A stretch of 24,000 nucleotides of DNA from an uncultured Desulfobulbus sp. (GTDB lineage Bacteria > Desulfobacterota > Desulfobulbia > Desulfobulbales > Desulfobulbaceae). The notes under the pieces were generated by a model. That model was not told where the DNA came from. It was given only the letters and a program-made list of their open reading frames with translations, and made no database searches. Below are positions 974 to 15,998 of the stretch, one piece after another. A program made the position numbers and the translations under genes. Numbering within the stretch: position 1 is the first letter of the stretch; each line of letters begins with the position of its first letter. The DNA lies in NCBI GenBank assembly GCA_964607065.1, contig CAZSIJ010000011.1:58459-82458 (forward strand), written 5' to 3'.

Positions 974-2002
974 TCAGGACGCATCCCCTTTCCCGGCATC
1001 ATTCTTTTTTTTCTCTAGCCTCTGGGTCACTAGCCGCGTTACCGTGCCGGCAACCAGGAGGGAACCGATCAAAATCGGCACATGGGAGACGTAATCCCAT
1101 GTGTAATCAGGATAAACTTGATTAGTAATCCTGGGGTTGAAGCCCAGTTTGTCGAATTGAACACCGGCCAGAAAGAGATATTGCGTGCCGCCAGCTTCAT
1201 CCATGCCATAGATATGGTTGACATAGGTGGCGACTACTTGTTCGGTTCGCTTTTTGCTGTCAACCCGCTGCACCGGATAGGCATAGCTGTCGCCAGGTTT
1301 AAGGGCAAGACGTCGTTTAGCCTCTTCACGCAAGTCTTCCACCCGTCCGAAGATCGAGGCGCCGGTTGGGCAGGCTTCGCAACAGGCTGAATATTTGCCT
1401 TGTGCATAGCGGTGGTTACACAGCTGGCACTTGACAACTGAAGGAGAAGCCTTTTCCCATTCATAGGCTGGAATGTTGAAAGGGCAAGCTATCTGGCAAT
1501 ACCGGCAGCCGAAGCATTTGTTTTTGTTATAAGTGACGATTCCGGTGTCTTTTTGCTTTTGCAGGGCTGCTACCGGACAGACCGAGACGCAGGCCGGTTC
1601 AATGCAATGCAGGCAGTGCTGTTTAATAAAGGAGAAGGTGGGTGAGCCGCTGTCTGGCGTGGTTTTACCTTCATTCCGGTGGGCTTTGATGACACACAAA
1701 GTGTTGGATGAGAGGTTCTTTGGGGCATCGTAGATTTTATCTTTATCCCCTTCTGGATGTTCGAAAGGAATCTTTCCCGCGGTTTCTTTGTGATACAGAG
1801 CCCCGCCTGGTTCAGAATTGGCTAATTTACAGTTGACCATGCACGACTTGCAGCCGATGCACAGGGTGGAATCGTAGAGGATGCCAACCGCATCTTTGGA
1901 GAGTTGCGGCGCCTGGGCAGCTGTGCCGGAGGTCGCCCCTGCAGTCAGCATCAGGCCTGAACCCGCTGAAAATTTAAGAAAATCCCGTCTATTTATTGCC
2001 AT
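974..2002 (-). CDS. hybA: HybA-type periplasmic 4x[4Fe-4S] ferredoxin-like hydrogenase electron-transfer subunit (Tat signal, C-terminal membrane anchor)
   Basis: 342-aa ORF. The N-terminus has a twin-arginine signal (MAINRRDFLKFSAG...AAQA). There are four Cys clusters (CIGCKSCMVNC, CLHCIEPACVSVCP, CFGCRYCQIACP, CQLC...CCEACP). A single C-terminal hydrophobic helix is present (VPILIGSLLVAGTVTRLV). It sits between the hydrogenase small and large subunit genes. Confidence 0.85.
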   Translation of the reverse strand: MAINRRDFLKFSAGSGLMLTAGATSGTAAQAPQLSKDAVGILYDSTLCIGCKSCMVNCKLANSEPGGALYHKETAGKIPFEHPEGDKDKIYDAPKNLSSNTLCVIKAHRNEGKTTPDSGSPTFSFIKQHCLHCIEPACVSVCPVAALQKQKDTGIVTYNKNKCFGCRYCQIACPFNIPAYEWEKASPSVVKCQLCNHRYAQGKYSACCEACPTGASIFGRVEDLREEAKRRLALKPGDSYAYPVQRVDSKKRTEQVVATYVNHIYGMDEAGGTQYLFLAGVQFDKLGFNPRITNQVYPDYTWDYVSHVPILIGSLLVAGTVTRLVTQRLEKKKNDAGKGDAS

Positions 2003-2028: not shown

Positions 2029-3123
2029 TCAGTCTTCCTTACCATCGCGTTTGGTTAGGGCCACCGCAGCGGCACCGATAGCAGCTCCAGCAACACCGTA
2101 AGCGAATCCCTTGGCCCCGCTACCTTTTTCAGGAACCGCATCTGTATGCCCGGCCGGAGGGGTGGGGAAGACAACCTTGGCTTTGGAGAACAGAGGACTG
2201 TTGAATCCGACTTTTTCCTCGGAACAGCCGAAGCAAGGTGACCCGGTTGCAACCGGCCAGCAGCCGGGAGTATCGTTGAAGGGAAGAGTCGAGCAGTTGT
2301 TGTAGGTCTCTGGACCTTTGCAACCCATCTTGTAGAGGCAGAATCCCTGGCGGTGTCCTGCGTCGCCGAAGTCCTCAGCAAAACGACCTGCATCGAAATG
2401 CGGACGGCGTTCGCAGTTTTCATGAATGAGGCGGCTGTAGGCGAATTTCGGGCGTCCTTTATCATCCAGGGCAGGCAGTTTCTTGAAGGTCAGGTAATGG
2501 ATGACCGTGGAGAGAAAATTATACGGATTGGGCGGGCAACCAGGGATGTTGATCACAGGAATACCTTTACCTTTCAGAATCTCGTGAACTGGGGTGGCCC
2601 CGGTGGGGTTCGGAGAGGCAGCGGCAACACCGCCCCAGGCAGCGCATGATCCGATGGCGATAACTGCGGCAGCGAGTGGAGCAGTTTCATTGAGAATATC
2701 CAGCACCGGCTTGCCGGCGACCATGCAATAGACGCCCTTATCCTTGACTGGAATAGCACCGTCCACCACCAGAATGAACTTGCCTTTATTAGCTTCGATT
2801 GATTTGGCGCGGTGGGCTTCAGCCTGATGGCCGGACCCTGCGTTGAGGGTCTCAGAATACTCGAGCGAGATCAGGTCGAAAATCAGACTGTCGATAGACG
2901 GATGATTAGTGCGCAACAAGCTCTCAACACAGCCCGTACACTCCTGACCAGACAGCCAGATCACTGGAGGTCGTTGGGGCGAGGTGATAGCCTCGGCTAT
3001 TTTCGGGACCATACCGATCGGCAGGCCCATCGTCGCCGCAACCGCCGTGCAGAACTTCATGAAATCCCTGCGAGTCACTCCACTCAACAGATTCTCATTA
3101 TTGTCAACAGCCTTAGACTCCAT
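2029..3123 (-). CDS. [NiFe]-hydrogenase small subunit, group 1, Tat-exported, with C-terminal membrane anchor
   Basis: 364-aa ORF. It has a Tat motif (TRRDFMKF), the proximal-cluster motif QECTGCVESLL, and further Cys motifs (GSCAAWGG, GCPPNP, CxxxxxxC...GSPCFGCSE). The C-terminus has a hydrophobic tail (GVAGAAIGAAAVAL). A strong SD (AAGGAGGT) lies upstream of the ATG at 3123. Confidence 0.92.
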   Translation of the reverse strand: MESKAVDNNENLLSGVTRRDFMKFCTAVAATMGLPIGMVPKIAEAITSPQRPPVIWLSGQECTGCVESLLRTNHPSIDSLIFDLISLEYSETLNAGSGHQAEAHRAKSIEANKGKFILVVDGAIPVKDKGVYCMVAGKPVLDILNETAPLAAAVIAIGSCAAWGGVAAASPNPTGATPVHEILKGKGIPVINIPGCPPNPYNFLSTVIHYLTFKKLPALDDKGRPKFAYSRLIHENCERRPHFDAGRFAEDFGDAGHRQGFCLYKMGCKGPETYNNCSTLPFNDTPGCWPVATGSPCFGCSEEKVGFNSPLFSKAKVVFPTPPAGHTDAVPEKGSGAKGFAYGVAGAAIGAAAVALTKRDGKED

Positions 3124-3254
3124 CTGCTACCTCCTTGATGTACAGTTACACTGCTAAGTACGCATGACGACCAGACACACCTCAACTATAAAAAACGGTA
3201 CAAAATTCTTTTGTGTGAGTTGTATAAAAGCAAAAACAAACCTGTGCAACATTT

Positions 3255-3260
3255 ATTATA
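3255..3260 (-). promoter_or_regulatory. Candidate sigma70 -10 hexamer (perfect TATAAT on minus strand) for the group-1 hydrogenase operon
   Basis: The complement of 3255-3260 reads TATAAT, about 130 nt upstream of the small-subunit ATG. No good -35 is present (CTAATT/TAATTG at 16-17 nt). It is bracketed by the inverted repeat GTGCAA(3244-3249)/TTGCAC(3263-3268). Confidence 0.3.
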
Positions 3261-3263
3261 TTT

Positions 3264-3282
3264 TGCACAATTTGCACAATTA
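3264..3282. promoter_or_regulatory. 19-nt motif TGCACAATTTGCACAATTA (copy 1), candidate operator shared with the hypF upstream region
   Basis: It is 17/19 identical to 7648-7666 in the same orientation. It lies 141-159 nt upstream of the small-subunit ATG. It is part of a cluster of four TGCAC/GTGCA half-sites (3244-3248, 3264-3268, 3273-3277, 3283-3287), including the perfect palindrome TGCAC-AATTA-GTGCA at 3273-3287. Confidence 0.4.
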
Positions 3283-3426
3283 GTGCAGTTTGCTTATGTG
3301 CGAGTGAGATAATTGATGAGCCAAATGAGTTTACGGAGGTCAGGGTAAGCGATGTGATATTTAGGAGTAATTTATATGGATGGCGGAGCACGGTGCGATT
3401 GATGCTATAAAGGCTGCCAGGGTGTC

Positions 3427-3455
3427 TTATTGCAAGCAATAATGAATTATTCATT
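3427..3455. promoter_or_regulatory. Two abutting perfect AT-rich palindromes (possible upstream regulator binding sites)
   Basis: TTATTGC-AA-GCAATAA at 3427-3442 and AATGAAT-T-ATTCATT at 3441-3455. They lie about 305-330 nt upstream of the group-1 hydrogenase small-subunit start, inside the 680-bp intergenic region. Confidence 0.3.
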
Positions 3456-3801
3456 GGAAAGATTTGCAGGCGGGGAGGGGTATCTGCTGGTTTAAACTGC
3501 GACCAGAGCTGGGCAATAGAGAAAATGGTGCCGAGGTCTAATGAGAAAAAGCGAGAACGAATGTTCGATTGAGGAACAAACTGATAAAGAAAGGAAATGG
3601 GAGAGGGGCAAGCGCCAGGATGTTCTGGCGTGGTTGCGAAAATTTGAACCCTCGCTTCTAGGAATACTGGCCAGGCCCCCGCTGGGGCGAAGCATTTTAG
3701 AGCGGGGCAGGTTGTAACAAGTTGCGCTGAATGGAAAGGGCGGCTTGTACGGGAGTTTTGCGTCACATCATGAGTGAGTTTTATTTCGCATCATTATAGG
3801 A

Positions 3802-4929
3802 TCATGGCGTTGTTTTGTCTTTTGCAACCTTGCGGCGGCTTTCCTTCTGGCCGCTGTAGCGGTAATAGGCGGCGCAGGTCCCTTCGTTTGAAACCATACA
3901 GGGGCCGACCGGTTGCAAAGGGGTGCAGGCGGCACCATAAAGGGGACAATCCGGGGGCAGGAGGCGACCTTTGAGAATGTCGCCGCATCGGCAACCTTTG
4001 GTCTCACTCGTAGGTTGTAGCTGGATTTCAAGTCGTAGCATACCGTCAAAGCGGCTATATTTCTCCCGTAGTACCAGGCCGCTGCCAGGAATGACCCCAA
4101 GACCGCGCCATTCGCTGTCGGCCGGCATAAAGACCTCGTTAATCAACGCTAGCGCTTTGCGGTTGCCTTCAGGGCTCACAACTCTGGTGTAGCAGTTGTC
4201 GACCCTGGGCGCGCCTTCCTTGTGTTGTCGGATCAGGCTAAGCAGGCCGGCGAGGATGTCGGCGGGTTCGAAACCGGCGACGGCGCATCCCAGGTGGTAT
4301 CGTTCGGCCATGGGCAGGTAGGCGTCGCTGCCTATGATGGCACTGACATGGCCGGGGCAGAGCAGGCCGTCAACCTGCAGTTCCGGGTCGGCCATTAAGG
4401 CCTCCAGTGCCTGGGGCATGGTCTTGCTGGCGGCAATGATCATAAAATTGGAGATCCCCAACCGTTCGGCCTGTAAAATGGTGGCAGCAATGGTCGGAAT
4501 GGTCGTCTCAAAGCCAATAGCAGGAAAGAGGACTAACCGTTCCGGCTCCTGTTGCGCCAGGGTCAGTGCGTCCATGGGCGAGTAGACGATTTCCACTCGG
4601 GCTCCTCCGGCTCGTGCTGTAGCCAGTGATCCATTGCGGCCTGGAACACGGATCAGGTCGCCGAAGGTAGCGATGGTAACCTGGGGCAGGTTTGCGGCAG
4701 CAACAAAGGCGTCGATGTGACTGGCTGGGGTCACGCAGACCGGACACCCGGGACCGGAGAGCAGGGTCAGGCCTTCGGGCAGCAGGGAGCGGATGCCATG
4801 GCGGAAAATCGACATGGTGTGGGTGCCGCAGACCTCCATGATCCGCAGGGGCCGGACCAGGCTGCGTCTGATTTCTTCCACCAGAGGTGCGGTGATTGCC
4901 CGGCTACGGAATTCGTCGGCGCACTTCAT
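3802..4929 (-). CDS. hypD: Hydrogenase maturation factor HypD (Fe(CN)2CO scaffold)
   Basis: 375-aa ORF: MKCADEFR...MEVCGTHTMSIFRHGIRSLLP...LLSGPGCPVCVTP...GFEP...C-terminal GPCMVSNEGTCAAYYRY. Its ATG overlaps the hypC stop (ATGA at 4926-4929). Confidence 0.93.
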   Translation of the reverse strand: MKCADEFRSRAITAPLVEEIRRSLVRPLRIMEVCGTHTMSIFRHGIRSLLPEGLTLLSGPGCPVCVTPASHIDAFVAAANLPQVTIATFGDLIRVPGRNGSLATARAGGARVEIVYSPMDALTLAQQEPERLVLFPAIGFETTIPTIAATILQAERLGISNFMIIAASKTMPQALEALMADPELQVDGLLCPGHVSAIIGSDAYLPMAERYHLGCAVAGFEPADILAGLLSLIRQHKEGAPRVDNCYTRVVSPEGNRKALALINEVFMPADSEWRGLGVIPGSGLVLREKYSRFDGMLRLEIQLQPTSETKGCRCGDILKGRLLPPDCPLYGAACTPLQPVGPCMVSNEGTCAAYYRYSGQKESRRKVAKDKTTP

Positions 4930-5204
4930 TCCGGTGCTCCAGGCAAGCGGCCTTGATGTCCAAGCGTTTCGGCCATCTGTCGCATGAGTTTGAGGTTGTA
5001 CTCGGCATCTTCAACAGTCAGGGTGCGAATGGCAAATCCAGCATGAATGATGACATATTCGCCGACCAGTGGGATTCGGTCAGCCATTTCCAGTCGGATT
5101 TCCTTGCGGATGCCGTCACTTTCAACCAGGGCGACGCCGGGATCGAGCAGCTCATCGCTCCCGCCTCTAATTTCGACAACTTGCATTGGGATAGCTAGAC
5201 ACAT
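4926..5204 (-). CDS. hypC: Hydrogenase assembly chaperone HypC/HupF family
   Basis: 92-aa ORF that begins with the diagnostic MCLAIPMQVVEI (essential Cys2). An AGGAGGT SD is present. Its start overlaps the hypF 3' end by 10 nt. Confidence 0.9.
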   Translation of the reverse strand: MCLAIPMQVVEIRGGSDELLDPGVALVESDGIRKEIRLEMADRIPLVGEYVIIHAGFAIRTLTVEDAEYNLKLMRQMAETLGHQGRLPGAPE

Positions 5205-7519
5205 GGGGGTGTACCTCCTATAAAGGCCTGGCCAAGACTGATGCCACCGTCGTTCATCGGCACCAATTCGCCGGTGAACACGTTGAATTGGTGTTGTTGC
5301 ATCGTGTCGATCAGTGTTTCAAAAAGCACTTTGTTCTGCATGCAGCCACCGGATAGGACTATATCGGTCATCTGCGTCCGTTGCCTCAAAATTTTAAGCA
5401 GAGCCACCAGAGATTCGGCCAGCCAGGAGTGAAAACGACGAGCTATGATCGGGATGGTGATCTGGTTGGCAATGTCGTGAAGGATCAAGGCGGCAAGCGG
5501 TGCGGAATCGATGATCTGGAGTCCCGCTTCTTCGCGGAGCGTGATCGGATAAAAGGTTGCGTGCTCCTTGTGATCGGCAAGGGTGGCTTGGTGTTCCAGC
5601 AACATGGCAGCCTGTCCCTCGTAATCGCTGTACAGGCAAAGCCCGAGCAGGGCTGCAACTGCATCAAAAAGCCGGCCGCAGCTGGTGGTCTGTGGGCAAT
5701 TGAGCCTTTTGGTCATCATTGCGCCCAAGATTTGTTTGTTTTCAGGAGGGATGACCAATAGGGCCGGCGGTTGGTTGGCCTCGGTAAAGGCCTCCATGCC
5801 CAGTCCTTGATAGAGCAGGGCTAGGGCCATGCGCCAGGGTTCCTGAGCGGCCCGATCACCTCCCGGCAACAGGAGGTGCGACAAACGGCCGAGGCGCTGG
5901 AAACTATGTCTGTCGGCGAAATAAATCTCTCCGCCAAAGATTGTGCCGTCGGTACCGTAGCCGCTGCCGTCGAGCACAACACTGAGGACGGGGCCTTCTA
6001 AACCCTGTTCAGCCAGCACCGCTCCGGTGTGAGCATGATGGTGTTGAACTTCGTGGCATGGGATTTTCAGGTTCTGAGCATAACGGGTACTGATGTAGTC
6101 GGGATGGAGGTCACAGGCCGTTTGCTCTGGCGTAACTTCGAGCACTGTCTGGAGATGCTGAATGCTTTCCCGGTAAAAATAAAAATTTTCCGCATTGGTC
6201 AGTTCGCCGATATGCTGGCTGATGTAGGCTTCCTGGTTGCGAACGATGCAAAAACTGTTTTTCATTTCTGCGCCGCAGGCCAGGATGTCGGCGGTCGGCT
6301 GGCGTAAAAGGATGGGAACCGGCGAATAGCCGCGTGCCCGGCGCAAAAGTCGGGTCGTGCCGGCCATAATCCGGGCGACCGAGTCGTCAACCCGAGTAAC
6401 GATATCCCGATCGTGCAGCAGAAAAAAATCAGCGAGTCCGTTCAGTCGTCTCAACGCCTCGTCGTTATCGGTGCAAATCGGCTCGTCGCTGCGGTTGCCA
6501 CTGGTCATAACCAGAGCAAGCGGAGCTCGGGGTTGATTAAGCAGGAGATGGTGGAGCGGGGTGTAGGGCAGCATCAGCCCGAGTATGCCAAGTCCCGGAG
6601 CCAGTCCGTCTGTTAAGTCCGCAGCCATCAGGCGATCGAGCAGGACAATGGGGTGTTCCGGTGCGGTGAGCAGAGCAGCTTCCTCTGGTGTAATGCGGCA
6701 AAAACGGGCGGCTGTGGCCAGATCTTTGACCATGATTGCCAAGGGTTTCGAGACGCGATTTTTGCGTTGTCGAAGCGTTGCCACCGCTGCAGCTGATCCG
6801 GCATCGACAGCCAGATGAAATCCCCCCAGCCCCTTGATTGCTACTACGTGGCCGTCTGCTAGGGCGCTGGCTGCTAAGGTCAGGCAGTCTCCCGCAATCA
6901 AATGGCCATCGCCATCATGCCAGCTCAGACGTGGTCCGCATTGAGGGCAGGCGTTGGGTTGGGCGTGGAAGCGGCGATCCATAGGGTCGTGATATTCTTG
7001 ATTGCAGGCTTCGCACAGGGGGAAGAGGCGCATCGAGGTGTTGGGCCGGTCGTAGGGGATCTGCTCGACAATAGAAAACCGGGGGCCGCAGTTGGTGCAG
7101 TTAGTAAAAGGGTAGCGGAAACGACGGTTGCTCGGTTCAAGGATTTCGACCAGGCAATCGTTACAGATGGCAATGTCCGGGGCGATCTGGGTGCTGGGGC
7201 GCGCCCCTTGACTGCTCGGCAAAATTTGGAAGTCGGCGGCGGTAAGTGGTTGCTCGGTCGTCTGTACGTCTAGGCGGATGATCCGTGCGGATGGTGGAGC
7301 TTCGGTTCTCAGGGCAGCAATGAAATCGTCCAGGGTTGCCTCAGTGCCGCGGATGCGTATGTGGACGCCGTCACTGTTGTTGGCAACCGTCCCTGTCAGG
7401 CCGTGCCGGTGGGCCAGTCGGTACACAAACGGACGAAATCCCACTCCTTGAACAATCCCGTGAATGGTAATGATCAGAGTTTTCGTCTGCCTATCTACGA
7501 GGTTTACGGCCAGGGTCAT
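5195..7519 (-). CDS. hypF: Carbamoyltransferase HypF
   Basis: 774-aa ORF. It has an N-terminal acylphosphatase-like domain (IHGIVQGVGFRPFVYRLA). Two zinc-finger pairs are present (CNDC...CTNCGPRFS, CEAC...CPQCGPR). These are followed by a YrdC-like and a Kae1/HypF C-terminal domain (GGCMQN...). Confidence 0.93.
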   Translation of the reverse strand: MTLAVNLVDRQTKTLIITIHGIVQGVGFRPFVYRLAHRHGLTGTVANNSDGVHIRIRGTEATLDDFIAALRTEAPPSARIIRLDVQTTEQPLTAADFQILPSSQGARPSTQIAPDIAICNDCLVEILEPSNRRFRYPFTNCTNCGPRFSIVEQIPYDRPNTSMRLFPLCEACNQEYHDPMDRRFHAQPNACPQCGPRLSWHDGDGHLIAGDCLTLAASALADGHVVAIKGLGGFHLAVDAGSAAAVATLRQRKNRVSKPLAIMVKDLATAARFCRITPEEAALLTAPEHPIVLLDRLMAADLTDGLAPGLGILGLMLPYTPLHHLLLNQPRAPLALVMTSGNRSDEPICTDNDEALRRLNGLADFFLLHDRDIVTRVDDSVARIMAGTTRLLRRARGYSPVPILLRQPTADILACGAEMKNSFCIVRNQEAYISQHIGELTNAENFYFYRESIQHLQTVLEVTPEQTACDLHPDYISTRYAQNLKIPCHEVQHHHAHTGAVLAEQGLEGPVLSVVLDGSGYGTDGTIFGGEIYFADRHSFQRLGRLSHLLLPGGDRAAQEPWRMALALLYQGLGMEAFTEANQPPALLVIPPENKQILGAMMTKRLNCPQTTSCGRLFDAVAALLGLCLYSDYEGQAAMLLEHQATLADHKEHATFYPITLREEAGLQIIDSAPLAALILHDIANQITIPIIARRFHSWLAESLVALLKILRQRTQMTDIVLSGGCMQNKVLFETLIDTMQQHQFNVFTGELVPMNDGGISLGQAFIGGTPPCV

Positions 7520-7675: not shown

Positions 7676-7930
7676 TTACCCCTCACCCAAAGCTTGGCGC
7701 TGAATTTCACGATAACGTTTGGAGTGGACGATCTTTTGTTTTTCCAGATCTTCAATTTCTTCCCGGCTCAAATGGATAAGCCCGCAGACTGGACAGGAGA
7801 GATCCATGTCATCGTGAGCGGCGCGCTGTTTGAGTTCGTCGGCTGTCATGTGTCCGACATAGCCGCAGGCACAGTTCGGTGCTTCGACCCTGACTACTTT
7901 TCGTTGTTTTGTTTTGTTATTCTCGTTCAT
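7676..7930 (-). CDS. Small hypothetical Cys4 (CxC...CxxC, zinc-ribbon-like) protein with charged helical C-terminus
   Basis: The ORF track gives 7676-7975, which uses a TTG start. The first ATG (complement of 7928-7930) gives 84 aa: MNENNKTKQRKVVRVEAPNCACGYVGHMTADELKQRAAHDDMDLSCPVCGLIHLSREEIEDLEKQKIVHSKRYREIQRQALGEG. It is on the same strand as its neighbours, wedged between the Sec hydrogenase large subunit and hypF. There is no obvious SD, I recognise no family, and the start is uncertain. Confidence 0.5.
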   Translation of the reverse strand: MNENNKTKQRKVVRVEAPNCACGYVGHMTADELKQRAAHDDMDLSCPVCGLIHLSREEIEDLEKQKIVHSKRYREIQRQALGEG

Positions 7931-7983: not shown

Positions 7984-9429
7984 TTAGCGTTGCAAAATCC
8001 TGATGCTTCGGCCCTGATGGTCATAGAGGGTGACTGCCAATGCCAGACCGCCATCCAGGCGGTGCGTCGCGCAGGAAATTCAGGGGTCATAGGCGCGGAC
8101 CGCCATCTCGATCCGGTTGAGCATCTCTTCGTCAAATTCACCGTCGCAGATCAGGCTGGAAGCTGCCTGATGCACGCTCAGGTTCATTGGCGCGATATTG
8201 TGGGTGGTGCCGACGATGAGATTGGCCTTGGTGATACAGCCATTGTCATCAGTGGTGTAATCGTGGATCAAGGTGCCACGAGGCGCTTCAACATGACCAA
8301 TGCCCCGACCTGCCTGTGGTGTAGCCGGATTGCGTATGGCAGGGTCCGTGATAGTATCGTCTGCCAGTAGCTCCAAGGTCCTTTCACAGGCGTAAACCAG
8401 TTCAATCAGCCGGGCCCAGTGGTACAACAGGGTGCCCTGGGCGGGGCGTCCAAATTGTTCACGAAAAGCCTCCAGTTCTGCCTGGGCCCTTGGAGTGGCA
8501 ATGCGGTCGCAAACATTGAGGCGGGCCAGAGTGTTGACCCGGTAGATGCCTTTGGGTGCTGCTGGATCGAGGGAGAAACCCTCGCGCCAGGATTTGGCAT
8601 AGACCATCTTGGCTGTGGACCAAGGCTCGACATGTTCGCTCAGATGCAGTTCATAGTCACTTGCCGGGAAATCGATAGATTCGCCATTGGGATGCATCAA
8701 CCGCAGCAAGCCGTCGTAGAGTTGCAGGTTTCCCTGCGCATCGACCGCACCCAGAAAGCCGGTAGTGATGGCGCCCAAGGATTGCATCTCCTCCCGAAAG
8801 CGGCCGAAGACTTTGTCTTTCGCATAGTCGAGGGCAAAGGATGCAAAATCGAGCAGCAGGGCGGCGTCTCGTTGCAACTCTTGGCGTTCCTCATTGCTCA
8901 TCGGTTTGGCAAAACCGCCGACCACTCCGGCTACCGGATGGATGGCCTTGCCGGCAAATCGCTCCAGCATCATTTGCCCCAGTTGCCGCATGTGAACGAC
9001 GCGGGCCGCCAGTTCCGGGTCCTTGCGCACCATGCCCATGATATTGCGGACCGAATAGTCGCTGTCCGGGCCAAGAACAAAATCAGGAGCTGCAAGAAAG
9101 AAAAAGTGAAGGATTTTGTCGTGGATGTGCGCCATAACCTGGCAGAGTTCACGCAATCGGTGGCCGGCTGGGGTGGGGGTAACCCCGAAACAGCCGTCAA
9201 TAGCCTTTACTGCTGCCAGGTGATGCATCCAGGGGCAGATGCCGCAGATTCGGCTGACAATCCGTGGAATCTCCTCAGCTGGCCGCCCGATAACGAACTG
9301 CTCGAAACCACGAAGAGCAGCGATCTCCACACGGGCATCACTGACCCGGCCGCTATCATCTAGGTGAATGGCGATGCTGGCGTGGCCTTCAATTCTGGTG
9401 ACAGGATGGATATGGATAACCTGCGCCAT
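7984..9429 (-). CDS. mvhA: [NiFeSe]-hydrogenase large subunit, MvhA/VhuA-like (group 3c), selenocysteine encoded by in-frame TGA at 8080-8082
   Basis: The likely true start is the ATG at 9429 (MAQVIHIHPVTRIEGHASIAI...RICGICPWMHH); the 51 upstream codons in the track ORF are not hydrogenase-like. The track ORF ends ...VRAYDP at a TGA. Reading through on the minus strand gives DP-U-ISCATH-RLDGGLALAVTLYDHQGRSIRILQR-TAA (stop at 7984-7986). That is the canonical DPCxxCxxH Ni site with Sec at the first Cys, plus a 25-aa protease-cleaved tail. The product is 481 aa with Sec at residue 450. Confidence 0.85.
8044..8066 (-). promoter_or_regulatory. Candidate bacterial SECIS hairpin directing Sec insertion at UGA 8080-8082
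   Basis: The minus-strand RNA reads 5'-ACCGCC-UGGAU-GGCGGU-3' (8063->8047), a perfect 6-bp GC-rich stem with a G-containing 5-nt loop. After one C/C mismatch it is extendable by G-U and C-G pairs. The stem starts 16 nt after the UGA, a spacing compatible with known bacterial SECIS elements. Confidence 0.5.
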
Positions 9430-9472: not shown

Positions 9473-10393
9473 TCAGTTCTTCTTTCGGGCCGGCTTAAGC
9501 AGGCCGTGAGCGCCACTGAAGCGCAACAGCGATTTGCGGTCAACAAGAGCACGGTGATCGATACCGTTGCTGGCCAGCGCATTCATCATGTCCAGAAGTT
9601 GATTGCCGCCGGGTTGTACCGGCCCATAACAGCCACGACAGGGAACACGAGCCTGAAGGCAAAGGGGTGTACCTTTGCCGCCGCAGCCACCGGCGGTAAC
9701 CGGTCCCATGCAAACCAAGCCCTGTTCAAGCAGGCATTGCATCCCGCTGATCGGCTGGTCGCGGTCATAGTCAGCATTGTGCAGAAACCGTTGGACTGGG
9801 GCCATTTTTTTCTTCCCCTCCCGGATAGTAGGGCAGGTCTCGCAGACGCTCTTCTGTGGCAGCTGGAATGCTTCCTTGTTGACCAACGCCTTGATAACCG
9901 CCCCAATCAATTGCGGTTGGGGCGGGCATCCGGGCAGGCTGACATCGACCCTCACTTTTTCATCGACACTGTAGACTCGGTCAAGAAAAGCAGGGGCAGA
10001 TGAGGGGGATATCTCATTATCGACGGTGCCGGCTGTAAATACGGTGTGCAGTGTGTCGGCTGTCGACCATTGATTGCGCATCGCTGGAATACCGCCGTGG
10101 GTGGCGCAGGTGCCAAGCGCAATCAGGGTCCGACATTGTTTGCGCATCTCTTGCAGCACCTGGAGATGCTCCTGGTGGGCAACGCCGCCGGAGACCAGGC
10201 CGATATCCGCTTCAGGCAGCGAGAGGGGTGCTCCTTCTCCCCGCTGACCCCCATATTTATGGTCCATAAGCAGGGGAAAATGAACAATTTCTGCCTGATC
10301 GAACAAATCAAGCAATTGCTCCCCCCAATTGAGCATGGAAATTTCACACCCGGAACAGGCATGCAGCCATTCAAAGTTGAGCTTGGGTTTCAT
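9473..10393 (-). CDS. mvhG: [NiFe]-hydrogenase small subunit, MvhG-like (cytoplasmic, no signal peptide)
   Basis: 306-aa ORF: MKPKLNFEWLHACSGCEISML...ALGTCATHGGIP...LPGCPPQP... plus C-terminal Cys clusters (CETCP, GGCGGKGTPLC..CRGCYGP). No Tat motif is present. It lies directly upstream of the large subunit. Confidence 0.9.
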   Translation of the reverse strand: MKPKLNFEWLHACSGCEISMLNWGEQLLDLFDQAEIVHFPLLMDHKYGGQRGEGAPLSLPEADIGLVSGGVAHQEHLQVLQEMRKQCRTLIALGTCATHGGIPAMRNQWSTADTLHTVFTAGTVDNEISPSSAPAFLDRVYSVDEKVRVDVSLPGCPPQPQLIGAVIKALVNKEAFQLPQKSVCETCPTIREGKKKMAPVQRFLHNADYDRDQPISGMQCLLEQGLVCMGPVTAGGCGGKGTPLCLQARVPCRGCYGPVQPGGNQLLDMMNALASNGIDHRALVDRKSLLRFSGAHGLLKPARKKN

Positions 10394-10417: not shown

Positions 10418-10825
10418 CTAGTCCGCCGATTGCTCGGATTGTAACACCGCCAACCGTCCGCACATGTTGCGGAAGGCCTCGACCAACCGTTCCGGTTCGG
10501 CCGAGGAAACCCAGGTCAGTTGGAATTGCTCGGGCGCGTAGCCAAGGTCATCAAGGGTGTCGGTAATCACTTCCGCCCTGGCCAGGGCCATTTCGTTGCC
10601 TTTGATATAGTGACATTCACCGAGGTGGCAACCAATGATCATGACCCCTGCCGCCCCTTGCGCCAGTGCATGCAGGACCATCTCCGGATGAACCATGCCT
10701 GAGCACATGACCCGGATGATCCGTATCGATCCGGGGTATTGCAGGCGAGAAATACCAGCCAGGTCGGCGGCGGCATAGGAGCACCAGTTGCAGCAGAAGG
10801 CGATGATTTTCTGTTCCCGGTTCAT
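10418..10825 (-). CDS. mvhD: MvhD-like [2Fe-2S] hydrogenase delta subunit / HdrA adaptor
   Basis: Start is the ATG at 10825 (MNREQKIIAFCCNWCSYAAADLAG...RVMCSGMV...IIGCHLGECHY), 135 aa, with the typical MvhD Cys pattern. The ATG overlaps the TGA of the upstream hdrA-like gene (ATGA at 10822-10825). The track ORF adds 10 unlikely N-terminal codons. Confidence 0.88.
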   Translation of the reverse strand: MNREQKIIAFCCNWCSYAAADLAGISRLQYPGSIRIIRVMCSGMVHPEMVLHALAQGAAGVMIIGCHLGECHYIKGNEMALARAEVITDTLDDLGYAPEQFQLTWVSSAEPERLVEAFRNMCGRLAVLQSEQSAD

Positions 10826-13800
10826 AGCGATGCCTCTGGAGAAAGCTCCGCGCACAGGGCAGCGTCAATCTGGGCTTCGATTTGATCATAGGTGAATCCG
10901 GAGATGGTGATGCCCCGCTTCGGACAGGTCCCCTGGCAGATGCCGCAACCTTTGCACAGGGCCTGGTTTATGGTCACTGATTTTTTGACTGAGCCATCCT
11001 CGTCCTGGTAGGTTACCAGGTGGATGGTCAAGTAGGGGCAAACATCAATACACAAGCCGCAGCCATCGCAGCGTTCCGGGTCAACCAGAGCTGTGTTGGG
11101 TTCCAGAGCGATTTCTTTGCGGGCCAGGAGACGACCGGCCTTGGCAGCGGCTGCTAGAGCCTGTGAAATCGACTCTTCCAGAGGTTTGGGATAGTGGGCC
11201 AGTCCAGCAACGAAAATGCCGTCGACGTTAAAGTCCATCGGCCGAAGCTTAGCGTGGGCTTCCTGGAAAAAGCCATCGGCGTTCAAGGGGAGCTTAAACA
11301 TGTTGGCCAGTTCCACGGCCTCCTGGCTGGCAAGGGTGGCAGCCGCGAGCACCACCATATCGGCCTTGATTTCCAGCGGCCTGTGGAGGACATGATCCCA
11401 GACCTCGACCAGTACTCCAGTATCTTCACGGCTGATCTTCGGCGGCCCGTGCAGTTCATAGTTGATGAAGATGATGCCCAATTCACGGGCCTGGTTGTAG
11501 ATGCGTTCGCGTTGGCCGTAGGTGCGGATTTCGCGATAAAGGATGTAGATCTGCCGCGAAGGTACTTCTTTTTTTAACTTGATGGCGCTTTGAATCGAAT
11601 GGGTGCAGCAGGATTTCGAACAGTAAGGTCGCTCCTTGTTACGAGAGCCGACACACTGAATGAAGACAAAGGATTTGCCATTTGCCACTCTGGTCTCATT
11701 GTGCATGTGCAGTTTGTCGAACTCAATCGATGCGACCACCTTGGGGATTTTACCGTATTCGAATTCCTCGGGAATATAACGTTTGGCGCCAATGGTAATA
11801 ATCGTAGCACCGTGTTCGATCGTTTGTTTCCGGTTTGTGCCGGTTTTGATAGTGGTGTTGAAGTTGCCGACATGGCCGGTGACCTCTATGACCGTGCTGT
11901 TATAGAAAACCTCGATGTTCGGGTTGTTCTGTACCTCTTCGTTGAGTCCCTTGAGGAATCGGGGCACATGTTCGCCGTTCCAGGTCTGAAAAAGATGGAG
12001 GGCATTACCGCCCAACTGCGACGATTTTTCGATAAGATGGATGTGGAATCCTTGTTGGGCAAGATTCAGCGCTGAGATCATGCCGGCTACGCCTCCGCCG
12101 ATGATCAGGGCCGAGGGGGTAATCGGGATCCGCAGTGGTTTGAGAGCTGTTTGGGTGGCTACCTTGACTACCGCCATCTTGACCAGATCCTTGGCTTTGC
12201 GGGTGGCTGTTTCCGGCTCCTGATTGTGTACCCAGGCATTCTGGTTGCGGATATTAGCCATCTCAAACAGATATTCGTTGATTCCTGCAGATTTAAGCGT
12301 CTTGCGGAACAGCGCTTCATGAGTTCTCGGGGTGCAGGCAGCAACCACAATCCGGTTCAGGCCATTATCCCTGATCTGTTGCACGATGAGATCCTGGGTG
12401 TCCTGGGCACAGGTGAAAAGATTACGCCCCACATGCACGACCTGCGGCAGGGTTTTGGCATAGGCGGTGAGTTCCTCGACATCGATGACGCCAGCGATGT
12501 TGGTGCCGCAATGACAGACGAAAACTCCAATCCGTGGTTCCTGGAGACGTACATCGAGTTCAATCGATGGGGGGGTCGTTTTAGTCCTGGTGTTGCGGGC
12601 GCTCGACAGCAATGACGATACACTGGCTGCGGCTGCGGAACCGCCAATCACCGATTGGGGAATGTCGCGCGGTCCGTTAAAAGCGCCACAGGTAAAGATA
12701 CCTTTTCTGGAGGTGTGGACCGGCATGAAGGCTGAGATAGAGGCAAACCGGTCCGGGGTCATGTGGATACCGATGGTCTCAGCCAATTTGACCATTGAGT
12801 CCGGTGTTTCCAGGCCGACCGAAAGGACTACTAGGTCAACGATCTCCTCGACCTGTTTACCCTGAGGGCTGATGTAGTGAAGGCGCAGGTCACCCTTGGT
12901 CCCTTTCGGTTCCACCCCATGAATGCGGGAACGGATAAATTTAACCCCGTATTCTGAGCGGGCCCGTTCGTAATAGCGGTCAAATTCTTTGCCTGAGGTC
13001 CGCATGTCCATGTGGAAAATGGAAACTTCGAGCTCTGGATTGACCTCTTTCGCCATGACCGCTTCCTTGATCGCATACATACAGCAGACCGAGGAGCAGT
13101 ATTCATTGTTGCAGCGGTTTTTATCTCGGCTGCCGATGCATTGCAGAAAAGCTATCTTCTTTACCGGTTCACCATCGGAGGGACGGGTCAGAATGCCGTC
13201 GGTAGGGCCGTTTGGGGAGAGGTAGCGCTCGAATTGGAGCGAGGTGATAACGTTGGGATAGATGCCATGTCCCCAGACCTTGGCTTTGGACGGATCAAAG
13301 GTTTGGAACCCAAGAGCCATGACCACCGCTCCAACCCGGAGTTCGTGATCATGTTCCTGGTCGTCGAAGTTGATGGCTCCAGGTGGACAGATCTCTGCAC
13401 AGATGCCGCAGGTTCCCGGTTGGTTTATTCTCAGGCAGGCCTCAGGGTCAATCTGGTATTTGAGCGGCACAGCCTGAGGATATTTAATATAGATGGCTTT
13501 GCGTTTGGCGATGTTGCTGTTGAAGGAATCGTCGACACTTTTGGGACACTGAGCGCTGCACTGGCCGCAGGCGATACACTTGCTGGTGTCGACATAGCGG
13601 GGATATTTCCGGACCCGAATGGTGAAGTCACCTGCCTGGCCACTGATATCGACCACCTGAGAAAGGGTCATGATGTTGATGTTGGGGTGGCGTCCGCATT
13701 CGACCAGTTTTGGGGCGATAATGCACATTGAGCAGTCGTTGGTAGGGAAAACCTTGTTGTATTGGGGCATGGCCCCGCCAATGGCACCGGTTTTCTCCAC

Positions 13801-13920
13801 CAGGTAGACCAGGAATCCTAAGTCAGCGAGATCCAAGGCTGCCTGCATCCCGGAGATGCCACCGCCCACCACCATGACTGCACCGCTCATAGTATTGTCA
13901 GACATGTGTTGTCGTTCCAT
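10822..13920 (-). CDS. hdrA: Double-module HdrA-like flavoprotein (1032 aa; two FAD-binding modules, HdrA N-domain in the middle, inserted and C-terminal ferredoxin domains)
   Basis: - Residues ~14-435 are an HdrA thioredoxin-reductase-like module (VVGGGISG, FPTNDCSMC, inserted ferredoxin CIACGQCSAQCP...CGICAEICP, CIGSRD...CSSVCC).
- Residues ~462-590 resemble the HdrA N-terminal domain (IGVFVCHCGTNIAGVIDV).
- Residues ~603-935 are a second FAD module (IIGGGVAG, CVGSRNKERPYCSKSCC) that lacks the TNDCSxC motif.
- Residues ~945-1005 are a 2x[4Fe-4S] ferredoxin (CDGCGLCIDVCP, CKGCGICQGTCP).
- The start codon choice (13920 versus downstream ATGs) is uncertain because no SD is present. Confidence 0.88.
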   Translation of the reverse strand: MERQHMSDNTMSGAVMVVGGGISGMQAALDLADLGFLVYLVEKTGAIGGAMPQYNKVFPTNDCSMCIIAPKLVECGRHPNINIMTLSQVVDISGQAGDFTIRVRKYPRYVDTSKCIACGQCSAQCPKSVDDSFNSNIAKRKAIYIKYPQAVPLKYQIDPEACLRINQPGTCGICAEICPPGAINFDDQEHDHELRVGAVVMALGFQTFDPSKAKVWGHGIYPNVITSLQFERYLSPNGPTDGILTRPSDGEPVKKIAFLQCIGSRDKNRCNNEYCSSVCCMYAIKEAVMAKEVNPELEVSIFHMDMRTSGKEFDRYYERARSEYGVKFIRSRIHGVEPKGTKGDLRLHYISPQGKQVEEIVDLVVLSVGLETPDSMVKLAETIGIHMTPDRFASISAFMPVHTSRKGIFTCGAFNGPRDIPQSVIGGSAAAASVSSLLSSARNTRTKTTPPSIELDVRLQEPRIGVFVCHCGTNIAGVIDVEELTAYAKTLPQVVHVGRNLFTCAQDTQDLIVQQIRDNGLNRIVVAACTPRTHEALFRKTLKSAGINEYLFEMANIRNQNAWVHNQEPETATRKAKDLVKMAVVKVATQTALKPLRIPITPSALIIGGGVAGMISALNLAQQGFHIHLIEKSSQLGGNALHLFQTWNGEHVPRFLKGLNEEVQNNPNIEVFYNSTVIEVTGHVGNFNTTIKTGTNRKQTIEHGATIITIGAKRYIPEEFEYGKIPKVVASIEFDKLHMHNETRVANGKSFVFIQCVGSRNKERPYCSKSCCTHSIQSAIKLKKEVPSRQIYILYREIRTYGQRERIYNQARELGIIFINYELHGPPKISREDTGVLVEVWDHVLHRPLEIKADMVVLAAATLASQEAVELANMFKLPLNADGFFQEAHAKLRPMDFNVDGIFVAGLAHYPKPLEESISQALAAAAKAGRLLARKEIALEPNTALVDPERCDGCGLCIDVCPYLTIHLVTYQDEDGSVKKSVTINQALCKGCGICQGTCPKRGITISGFTYDQIEAQIDAALCAELSPEASL

Positions 13921-14010: not shown

Positions 14011-15468
14011 TTATCGCGGTTCCCCTGGTTTGACTAAGGCCTTTGCCACCAGTTCCCACAGGAATTGAACCTCGATATTGAGGTTGAATTCACGGTTCAG
14101 CGATTTTTCCAGTTGGTCTTTGCAGTTTTGGCAGGAGGTGATAACCAGCTTCGCTCCTGATTCACTGATTTGCCTGGCCTTGATCCGGCCATGGAAGACC
14201 CGTTCGGCTCCATAGGGGCTGGCCCAGGCTCCGCCACCGGCGCCGCAGCAGTAATTCTCCTCACGATCGGGGATCAGGTCGACATATTTCGTGCAGCAAG
14301 CCTGGGTCAACGATCGGGCCTCCTCAAAATAACCGTGGCCAAAGGTCTTGAGCGATTTTCTGCCGTAGTTGCAGGAGTCGTTAAACGTCACCAGTTTATT
14401 GTGAACAACTGGTGCGAGGGTAATTCGTTTTTCATGGAGATATTCGAGCAATAGGTCGAAAACCGTATAGATTTTGAACTGATTGAGAGATTCGGGAAAC
14501 CAGTGTTCCAGGGCGTACCGGGTGGCGTAATAGGCATGGCCGCACTCGGGCAAAAGCAGTGCCGTGCAGTTGAGCCGCTCTATGTTGTCGATGATCCGTT
14601 CGGCCATGGTGCGCATGGCACTGTAGTCGCCAGAGTAAACCCCCCAGTTGACCCCTTCCCAGTTTTCCGAAGAGATAGTCCACGATTCACCGGCAGCATG
14701 GAAAATCTTCCACCACCAGGTCAGGCTTTCAGGTTCGGCGAAGGGTAGTTTGGAGTTGACGGTCACAAGCATTCTGGCGCCACGGACATCGATAGGGGTG
14801 ATGAAACCGGGACAAGATGACTCGGCCAATTCCTCGCCCAGTTCTTTTAAGAGAGTGATGAAGTCGTCCTTGGGGATGCCGAGGTTGTTTCCTTTTTCAA
14901 GACAGGTGACCACGCCTTTCTGGATGGCAGCGGGTACTTTTTCTCGATCGCGGCGGGAACGGATACGGCGCATCAATTGTAATATCTCGACATTCATCGG
15001 ACAGACAACTTCGCACTTACCGCACATGGTGCATTTCCATGGCCAGTCGCTGGCAAGCAGTTCTTCATCAAGGCCAAGGAAGGCCATGCGAATGATTTTG
15101 CGTGGATCGAGATCGTCAACCCCCGATATTGGGCAGGCTCCGGCACAAGAGCCGCAGGTTAGGCAAACATCGGCCATGGCCGGCTGGTTGTAGAGTGGGT
15201 TGGTCTTGAGTCCCAGGCGTACCGAAGGGAGAGCGCTTTCATTTTTCGGTAAAGAAGGAGCTTCGGTCTTGCTGTTGGGTTCCGGTGCTATCCGGGGTTC
15301 CCTGCCAAATTTATCACAGAGCCGTTTGTAATCCTCCCACTGGATCTGGTATCGTCGTCCCGGGCCTTCCTGTGCCGGCAATGCGCCCGAATTAATCCAG
15401 TTGCGGATGGTGTTGCGGTGTACTCCGAATTCTTCAGCCAGTTCATTGACTTTGATCTCGTAGATCAT
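14011..15468 (-). CDS. HdrD-like heterodisulfide-reductase-type protein (HdrC-like 2x[4Fe-4S] + HdrB-like CCG domain) with N-terminal excisionase/MerR-type helix-turn-helix
   Basis: - Start is the ATG at 15468, which overlaps the protease stop (ATGA at 15465-15468), giving 485 aa.
- Residues 1-50 (MIYEIKVNELAEEFGVHRNTIRNWINSGALPAQEGPGRRYQIQWEDYKRL) match the pattern of excisionase-family HTH domains.
- A ~45-aa Pro/Ser-rich linker follows.
- Next come CLTCGSCAGACP...CTMCGKCEVVCP.
- The CCG region has NDSC...YCCGAGGG...SCQNC. A first CCG-like segment is degenerate (PECGH). Confidence 0.85.
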   Translation of the reverse strand: MIYEIKVNELAEEFGVHRNTIRNWINSGALPAQEGPGRRYQIQWEDYKRLCDKFGREPRIAPEPNSKTEAPSLPKNESALPSVRLGLKTNPLYNQPAMADVCLTCGSCAGACPISGVDDLDPRKIIRMAFLGLDEELLASDWPWKCTMCGKCEVVCPMNVEILQLMRRIRSRRDREKVPAAIQKGVVTCLEKGNNLGIPKDDFITLLKELGEELAESSCPGFITPIDVRGARMLVTVNSKLPFAEPESLTWWWKIFHAAGESWTISSENWEGVNWGVYSGDYSAMRTMAERIIDNIERLNCTALLLPECGHAYYATRYALEHWFPESLNQFKIYTVFDLLLEYLHEKRITLAPVVHNKLVTFNDSCNYGRKSLKTFGHGYFEEARSLTQACCTKYVDLIPDREENYCCGAGGGAWASPYGAERVFHGRIKARQISESGAKLVITSCQNCKDQLEKSLNREFNLNIEVQFLWELVAKALVKPGEPR

Positions 15469-15998
15469 GGAGCGGTTGCCTCCAAGGTGGTGTAACGGGC
15501 GACAATTCGTAAAATCCGGTGACAAGCGTCTTGCACAGCAGCAAGCATGGTCGACGAGAGTCCTGGCGCAATGTGGTCAGGGATGACAGCGGTTTGGGCG
15601 ATCAACAGCACTACCTCAATGCCGGTCTCTTCCTGGAGCTCTCTGAGTAAATTGACCGTAGGAAACTGGTGCAGGGAAAAATCGTGGATTTTTTTCGCTG
15701 CAATTGTCGAAGGCGCGCATTCCAGGACTACGCCCGGAGCGCCGCTCTGTTGGTGACCCGCATCAATAATAATGAGCAGTTCCGGCCGCAGGCTGGGTAG
15801 CATGAGGTAATCGAGCAGGTATTCGCGGATACCGGTGCCGGCATCAACGAGGTAGACCCCTTCCGGCAGGTTGAGGGGTTGTAGCGCTTCGATAACCGCC
15901 GGGCCAAAGCCGTCATCACCAAGCAGGACGTTGCCGCAGCCGAAAATAACCACAGGCGGTGCAGGTGTCACAGGATGGGTATTGTGCGAGATGTGCAT
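15465..15998 (-). CDS. Hydrogenase maturation endopeptidase (HyaD/HybD/FrhD family)
   Basis: 177-aa ORF with VVIFGCGNVLLGDDGFGPAVIEAL...YLVDAGTG...LIIIDA...HQF. This is the metal-binding E/D...D...H pattern of the C-terminal processing proteases. It is the first gene of the hdr/mvh cluster. Confidence 0.88.
   Translation of the reverse strand: MHISHNTHPVTPAPPVVIFGCGNVLLGDDGFGPAVIEALQPLNLPEGVYLVDAGTGIREYLLDYLMLPSLRPELLIIIDAGHQQSGAPGVVLECAPSTIAAKKIHDFSLHQFPTVNLLRELQEETGIEVVLLIAQTAVIPDHIAPGLSSTMLAAVQDACHRILRIVARYTTLEATAP

Follow-up and report, generated by a model that had tools for sequence, protein, structure and literature searches.

Hydrogenases of the Mvh type that contain selenocysteine (Sec), and the kind of operon that encodes them, have been established in deltaproteobacterial sulfate reducers since 2006-2009 (PMC1794560, PMC2702500). 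Zhang et al. (2006) described, in Syntrophobacter fumaroxidans and Desulfotalea psychrophila, a glpC-hdrA-frhD-frhG-frhA operon that includes Sec-containing members (PMC1794560), and Strittmatter et al. described a Sec-containing cytoplasmic hydrogenase, MvhA2DG, in Desulfobacterium autotrophicum HRM2 (PMC2702500). Among listed selenoprotein families is MvhA/VhuA/VhuU, which has a UxxC motif (PMC13188914). Here we analyse mvhA, which encodes the large subunit of a hydrogenase of this type, in a 24,000-nucleotide stretch of DNA from an uncultured Desulfobulbus sp. (GenBank assembly GCA_964607065.1, contig CAZSIJ010000011.1, positions 58,459 to 82,458; hereafter the window, in whose numbering positions are given). 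The open reading frame (ORF) of mvhA is interrupted by a UGA codon at 8082-8080 on the minus strand, which we consider to be recoded as Sec with a probability of about 0.9, on the basis of the conservation of the codon, the open frame downstream of it, its alignment with Cys and Sec ligands, the constraint on a hairpin at the RNA level and the gene context. As judged from sequence, MvhA would then be a selenium-containing enzyme.

The locus resembles the operon of D. psychrophila and S. fumaroxidans in that genes for a GlpC-like protein, HdrA, MvhD/FrhD, a small subunit and a large subunit with Sec, here predicted, follow each other in the same order. It differs in that the window, together with its Desulfobulbus-like subclade, retains Sec in the large subunit only, and in that the window has a long HdrA-like protein of 1032 aa and a protease gene heading the cluster. 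MvhA2DG of D. autotrophicum, also from a sulfate-reducing bacterium, is likewise a cytoplasmic Mvh with Sec whose genes cluster with HdrA; D. autotrophicum, however, belongs to another order (Desulfobacterales), its HdrA1 is also a selenoprotein and its cluster adjoins the [NiFeSe] hydrogenase HysAB, whereas the neighbouring hydrogenase in the window is Hyb-type. Methanococcal Vhu (PDB 9sfi) provides the best sequence match and shares the UxxC motif and the association with HdrA and VhuD, but it is encoded by two genes with an archaeal selenocysteine insertion sequence (SECIS) in the 3' untranslated region, whereas the window has a single ORF with a putative bacterial SECIS within the region coding for a probably cleavable tail. 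The group 1 [NiFeSe] hydrogenases (Desulfomicrobium baculatum 1CC1, D. vulgaris HysAB 2WPN) also carry Sec at the first position of DPUxxCxxH and a bacterial SECIS after the UGA; they differ in being periplasmic, Tat-exported and associated with other partners, and match MvhA at approximately 120 bits in an alignment confined to the N-terminal part. The Cys-type MvhA proteins (Methanothermococcus thermolithotrophicus 5ODC, 9sw2_F and the closest Cys-type relative, P0123) share the fold family, the motifs and a tail after the final His, but have Cys (TGC/TGT) instead of UGA.

In the original prediction, which had been made from the sequence alone, the ORF call of mvhA ended at ...VRAYDP-TGA (8080-8082) and was followed in frame by 31 codons and a TAA (7984-7986), and both the coordinates and the sequence were confirmed. 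The minus strand reads GAG ATG GCG GTC CGC GCC TAT GAC CCC TGA ATT TCC TGC GCG ACG CAC CGC CTG GAT GGC GGT, that is, EMAVRAYDP, the TGA at 8082-8080 and then the beginning of the 31 sense codons ISCATHRLDGGLALAVTLYDHQGRSIRILQR, which run up to the TAA at 7986-7984. The start is ATG 9429 (MAQVIHIHPVTRIEGH) rather than 9582 of the mechanical ORF call, which fits homologues of 449 aa. The full read-through ORF (7984..9429, minus strand) thus comprises 481 codons, made up of 449 aa, the predicted Sec450 and 31 aa, before the terminal TAA, and a Pfam scan places its product in the large-subunit family PF00374 (E=4e-34). The N-terminal motif for Ni binding, RICGICPWMHH with Cys62 and Cys65, spans residues 60-70 (9220..9252, minus strand). 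Read through the TGA (8080..8082), the C-terminal Ni-binding motif becomes D448-P-U-I-S-C453-A-T-H456 (8062..8088, minus strand), which corresponds to DP-U-xxC-xxH with Sec450 at its first, terminal Ni-ligand position, as seen in the translation and in alignments to relatives in the PDB. Residues 457-481, RLDGG...ILQR (7987..8061, minus strand), form a C-terminal extension that is predicted to be removed by a maturation endopeptidase after His456. Elsewhere in the window TGA is an ordinary terminator, for example of the HdrA-like gene and of hycI, and a scan of the window for other in-frame TGA read-through candidates found none with a plausible coding continuation.

Relatives of the locus were collected by scanning one representative genome per species, which gave 80 loci, all from Desulfobulbales and with 69-98% amino acid identity; together with the window they make up a set of 81 sequences. 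TGA directly follows ...AYDP in 80/80 related loci, and in 81/81 sequences when the window is counted. In the relatives [IML]SCATH[RH]LDGG comes next, with a tail that stays open for 30-37 codons and ends in TAA, TAG or a second TGA, and variability downstream of the TGA ranks third > first > second codon position, as in coding sequence. Isolate genomes with the same TGA include those of D. elongatus, D. alkaliphilus, Desulfopila aestuarii and Desulfosediminicola flagellatus. Conservation of the 31 downstream codons among orthologues had been set beforehand as a check of the read-through, and both TGA and tail proved to be kept across 80 independent assemblies.

Placing the UGA at a Ni-ligand Cys position, as had been proposed, was borne out when the read-through product was aligned with VhuA/VhuU and Cys-type MvhA sequences. 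Among distant homologues, represented by clusters at 50% identity, 77 (<=46% identity) carry DPCxxCxxH and, after it, a similar tail, e.g. DPCMSCATHSLPGQMPLEVVIRNADGEVIDVL, and the TGA of the window aligns with the first Cys of this motif. The best PDB matches of MvhA are Vhu/Mvh large subunits (9sfi_g, 9sw2_F, 7t2r_D and 5odc_F). HMMER aligned the motif and tail of the window to the PDB MvhA chain 9sw2_F, and in the VhuU chain 9sfi_M (27 residues, RAYDPXYSCAAH) the X, which is Sec, falls exactly on the TGA of the window. The NCBIfam models for VhuA (residues 5-426) and the VhuU selenoprotein (residues 431-458) both match the one ORF. The gene also clusters with mvhG, mvhD and an hdrA homologue, in an order that recurs in 60-78 related loci. 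These data support the assignment of the mvhA product, at the level of the family, as the large subunit of a cytoplasmic group 3c (Mvh/Vhu-type) [NiFeSe] hydrogenase. The proposal that the C-terminal extension is a tail of the kind removed by a protease agrees with the homologous tails in Cys-type relatives and with the HycI/FrhD-type protease gene in the cluster, and cleavage is predicted from these.

A GC-rich hairpin had been predicted at 8047-8063, 16 nt after the UGA, and was found at that position with the expected sequence. In the RNA it reads ACCGCC-UGGAU-GGCGGU (8047..8063, minus strand), with a 5-bp core stem (8062-8058 paired with 8052-8048) and a loop at 8057-8053. The core CCGCC-UGGAY-GGCGG is intact in 81/81 sequences, and none of the five pairs (C27-G41, C28-G40, G29-C39, C30-G38 and C31-G37 in the numbering of the alignment) is ever broken. 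Nine of the 81 sequences show a compensatory change from G-C to A-U, in which a non-synonymous CGC->CAC substitution (Arg->His) is always accompanied by a synonymous GGC->GGT; in 6/81, C->U changes give G.U wobble pairs, and the stem shows no further substitutions. The window has a sixth pair (A26-U42), which occurs in only 35/80 distinct sequences. The loop reads UGGAU, with UGGAC in seven sequences, and its GG is invariant in 81/81. The consensus model of the bacterial SECIS (bSECIS) has a loop of 3-9 nt, an upper stem of 4-16 bp, a spacing of 16-37 nt and a minimum free energy of <= -7.5 kcal/mol, and a G as the first or second loop nucleotide, mostly with G or U after it (PMC13188914). The hairpin has a loop of 5 nt with G at position 2 and then another G, a stem of 5 bp in 81/81 sequences and of 6 bp in the window, a distance of 22 nt from the UGA to the apical loop (8079-8058), and a minimum free energy of -10.5 kcal/mol for the 17-mer of the window and of -7.7 to -10.5 kcal/mol across the 81 sequences.

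The hairpin overlaps the coding sequence, the first five codons of the tail holding most of it and its 5' arm including part of the His456 codon. Codon entropy was therefore compared at columns in which the amino acid is conserved in >=95% of sequences. At His +6 it is 0.17, against >=0.81 at other His columns in the gene; at Leu +8 it is 0.00 (CTG in 81/81), against >=1.32 bits in 22 other Leu columns; at Asp +9 it is 0.42, the lowest of nine Asp columns; and at Gly +10 it is 0.50, against >=1.04 in 28 other Gly columns. Arg +7 uses CGC or CGT only, whereas other Arg columns use five codons. Five consecutive codons, +6 to +10, are thus frozen at synonymous sites, with pair-preserving changes only. 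The [R/H]LDGG with which the tail begins is specific to the Sec clade, and the equivalent residues vary freely in Cys-type enzymes; its invariance in the Sec clade is probably due to the SECIS lying almost entirely in the region that codes for the disposable tail. Pairing and codon entropy together indicate that the structure is kept beyond the coding constraint, although the independent events are few. The hairpin is supported as a constrained RNA element, and strong comparative data point to a bacterial SECIS, which would be bound by SelB.

Several observations weigh against the recoding of the UGA or against the assignments that go with it. The best NCBIfam model, VhuA, scores 443 bits, below its equivalog cut-off of 800, which is methanococcal; because the NCBIfam scores lie below these methanococcal cut-offs, the Mvh/Vhu assignment is made at the family and not at the orthologue level. 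The 24-kb window contains no sel gene and no tRNA-Sec, and the tRNA scan found no tRNA in it. The stem is short, at 5-6 bp, and its fold as a single sequence is not above chance (z = -0.94, with 32/200 shuffles folding as well), so that the significance of the hairpin derives from the comparative evidence. On a neighbour-joining tree the nine sequences with the compensatory change form two or three groups, and only one to three events in evolution may underlie the change. A fold check had been proposed for the SECIS, and its outcome was divided: as a single sequence the fold is not significant, while the comparative pairing and the properties listed in the bSECIS model are in its favour. The window is also predicted to form a longer, extended stem (8074-8034), which the relatives do not conserve, and the claim is therefore restricted to the 5-6 bp core. 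An Rfam scan of the window matched no family; Rfam is not expected to hold a model for this type of bacterial SECIS, and this null result is thus uninformative.

Evidence for Sec machinery was found in relatives. D. alkaliphilus (locus L013), which belongs to the same subclade as the window, has a tRNA-Sec with anticodon TCA at 18013-18109 (minus strand), 6.7 kb downstream of mvhA. Its neighbours are hypA, hypB, coaD and a second hydrogenase, and no sel gene was found among the neighbours checked. All Sec biosynthesis genes have been reported for Ca. Desulfobulbus rimicarensis DR15 (L017; PMC7117923), and 43 known selenoprotein genes are listed for Desulfosediminicola flagellatus (L055; PMC12013277). 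As a separate observation, D. alkaliphilus also encodes a second, Cys-type MvhA-like large subunit (20185-21345 of L013, minus strand; ...RAFDPCLACSTHAVGHMPLDVQLIGPDGTRLKHIRR) approximately 9 kb away on the other strand, and the pair of Sec-type and Cys-type MvhA is reminiscent of the Vhu/Vhc Sec/Cys isoenzymes of Methanococcus.

The remaining genes of the operon occur in two states with respect to Sec. An in-frame TGA is present in each of the GlpC-like, HdrA-like and MvhD genes of 44 related loci, and in the HdrA-like gene it gives DCSM-U, the known HdrA Sec site; all three additional TGAs lie at known Sec sites. These 44 loci share the four-selenoprotein state of D. psychrophila, which belongs to the same order (Desulfobulbales) as the window. 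In the window the corresponding codons are TGC, at 14542-14544 in the GlpC-like gene, 13723-13725 in the HdrA-like gene (DCSMC) and 10628-10630 in mvhD, and TGA was found at these Cys positions in 44, 44 and 47 relatives, respectively. The Cys/Cys/Cys state occurs in 18-19 loci in addition to the window, two of these loci having Ser in GlpC, and forms two separate clades on a neighbour-joining tree; no mixed Sec/Cys state of the three upstream genes was seen among the Desulfobulbales loci compared. The original prediction had MvhD and the HdrA-like protein using Cys throughout. This holds for the window, where neither gene contains an in-frame TGA, but beyond it the use of Cys is a feature of the subclade, given the TGA in 44 relatives. 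The codon in MvhA, by contrast, is TGA in every sequence of the set and never Cys. It is conceivable, though we regard it as doubtful, that the three upstream Sec residues form a coupled selenol/thiol relay that is switched together, with the Ni-ligand Sec of MvhA being effectively irreplaceable in this lineage; no more than two conversions or replacements in the past could account equally well for the two-state pattern. An operon with four Sec genes in one state and one in the other offers a natural comparison for where Sec is dispensable.

The presence of UGA at three further canonical Sec sites of the same operon in relatives also bears on the possibility that the UGA of mvhA is read by a near-cognate tRNA inserting Cys or Trp, with the hairpin merely stimulating read-through. 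Sequence by itself does not reveal which residue is inserted, and the source genome's sel genes were not seen, which leaves some room for this explanation. We nevertheless consider it very improbable, since the hairpin fits the SelB-type bSECIS model with a loop G that never varies and one member of the same subclade encodes a tRNA-Sec; moreover, if Cys were inserted, TGC or TGT would be expected in some of the 81 lineages and is seen in none.

That the TGA is instead a genuine stop, leaving a 449-aa product that is either dead or completed by a re-initiated VhuU-like peptide as in the split VhuA/VhuU of methanococci, appears highly improbable. Gene callers do end the gene there in every public record, methanococcal Vhu is truly split into VhuA and VhuU, and the codon directly after the TGA is ATG in 43/81 sequences, as re-initiation would have it. 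In the window and 37 others, however, this codon is ATT, ATC, ATA or CTG, so that no start codon follows the TGA, and the residues encoded fit the I/L/M/F of the Cys-type motif DPC[ILMF]SC. A re-initiated peptide would also begin past the Sec position and lack the terminal Ni ligand that VhuU supplies, and we rejected it on both counts. The split arrangement was likewise rejected, as one continuous ORF is matched by both models and the hairpin lies inside the coding region. Simple termination leaves a conserved TGA and a constrained hairpin at SECIS distance unexplained, and a pseudogene is ruled out, since conservation is strict in all 81 assemblies. An error of sequencing or assembly, or an inactivating mutation of recent date, has in its favour only the general expectation that some in-frame stops are errors and is refuted by the identical TGA in 80 genome and metagenome assemblies of independent origin, isolates included.

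With the UGA recoded as Sec, the following course of events can be proposed. SelB with Sec-tRNA(Sec) would be recruited by the minimal bacterial SECIS (8063-8047), with its GC stem of 5-6 bp and loop UGGAU, and would insert Sec450, after which translation would go on for 31 codons to the UAA. Cys62, Cys65, Sec450 and Cys453 would serve as ligands of the Ni-Fe centre, assembled by Hyp proteins such as those encoded by hypF, hypC and hypD just downstream. The HycI/FrhD-type endopeptidase would then cut after His456, with loss of the 25-residue tail. Mature MvhA, together with MvhG, MvhD, the HdrA-like and the GlpC/HdrD-like proteins, may form an H2-oxidising and probably flavin-based electron-bifurcating complex. 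In this scheme the binding of SelB, the selenium in the protein, the cleavage of the tail and the physiological electron acceptor are inferred.

The expectation that naive annotation would truncate the enzyme was borne out. In a collection of 5.8 billion proteins, 120/120 closest proteins end in ...DP, nearly all of them at 449 aa, and truncation is thus systematic in public annotation. These entries include NCBI records named 'Ni/Fe hydrogenase subunit alpha' and RefSeq entries from Desulfobulbus propionicus, D. alkaliphilus, D. oligotrophicus, D. rhabdoformis and Desulfogranum marinum. Being cut at the Sec codon, such records are without two of the four metal ligands and may be misjudged by hydrogenase classifiers that rely on motifs and in metabolic reconstructions. 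Among the papers searched, none was found to report a Sec codon specifically for the MvhA of Desulfobulbus; the paper on Ca. D. rimicarensis DR15 counts Mvh among the [NiFe] hydrogenases and does not mention Sec in it (PMC7117923). The practical value of the analysis lies in correcting an annotation error across a whole clade. In addition, the 81-sequence alignment offers an unusually clean example of a minimal bacterial SECIS of 15-17 nt, in which the constraint shows as five frozen codons of a probably cleaved tail.

Outside the Desulfobulbales set, a more distant MvhA-like gene with 44% identity (P0124; 3244-3300 of locus L081, plus strand) reads VRAHDP-TGA-ISCATHLVQGVRIVSKERP*, with a short tail and a different downstream hairpin, and is another Sec-type lineage. 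The proteins P0122, which may represent a further Sec-type lineage, and P0172 also end in ...DP. No equivalent of the CCGCC/GGCGG hairpin was found in L082, the closest Cys-type relative examined (n=1).

The other genes of the cluster lie on the same (minus) strand as mvhA. At its head is the HycI/FrhD-type hydrogenase maturation endopeptidase (15465..15998), matched by PF01750 and, above cut-off, by TIGR00072. It is followed by the gene for the GlpC/HdrD-like Fe-S/CCG protein (14011..15468; Pfam/NCBIfam), whose ATG at 15468 overlaps the stop of hycI as ATGA. The N-terminus of this protein (15343-15468) is an excisionase/MerR-type helix-turn-helix domain (PF12728, E=2e-8; TIGR01764), an unusual fusion; a TAA interrupts the N-terminal region of the GlpC/HdrD-like gene in L001, and the fusion may therefore not be universal. 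The HdrA-like flavoprotein (10822..13920; Pfam/NCBIfam) is next, and its stop overlaps the probable start of mvhD (MNREQKI...) as ATGA at 10822-10825, which suggests that mvhD is translationally coupled to the HdrA-like gene. The mvhD call (10418..10855; PF02662) has its likely start at ATG 10825, the mechanical ORF call beginning 30 nt further upstream, at GTG. The hydrogenase small subunit gene mvhG (9473..10393; PF01058, NCBIfam VhuG) separates mvhD from mvhA.

Directly downstream of mvhA lies a small ORF of 84 aa (7676..7930, minus strand) without a Pfam or NCBIfam match, which reads MNENNKTKQRKVVRVEAPNCACGYVGHM...LSCPVCGLIH and contains four Cys (CxC ... CPxC). By tblastn it was found at the same place in nearly all 80 Desulfobulbales loci, with 40-92% identity, and in a second copy in L009 and L014; it may encode an uncharacterised zinc-ribbon-like accessory protein of the Mvh cluster. 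The genes for maturation of the NiFe cofactor follow on the minus strand (3802..7519; Pfam/NCBIfam) as hypF (5195-7519), hypC (4926-5204) and hypD (3802-4929).

Beyond them are the genes of a periplasmic hydrogenase, with a small subunit carrying a Tat signal (2029..3123, minus strand; NF007779, 508 bits) and HybA (974..2002, minus strand; NCBIfam above cut-off); the gene for its large subunit lies beyond the edge of the window. An identification as [NiFeSe] HysAB, by comparison with D. autotrophicum, was considered and rejected, as the HybO-like small subunit and HybA make it Hyb-type. Between hypD and the Hyb small-subunit gene are two ORFs of 194 and 110 aa (3182-3766 and 3768-4100, minus strand) with no match in Pfam or NCBIfam. 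In D. alkaliphilus the gene after hypD at the equivalent place is hypE, an assignment made solely from ORF size and position, and the region thus differs between the two.

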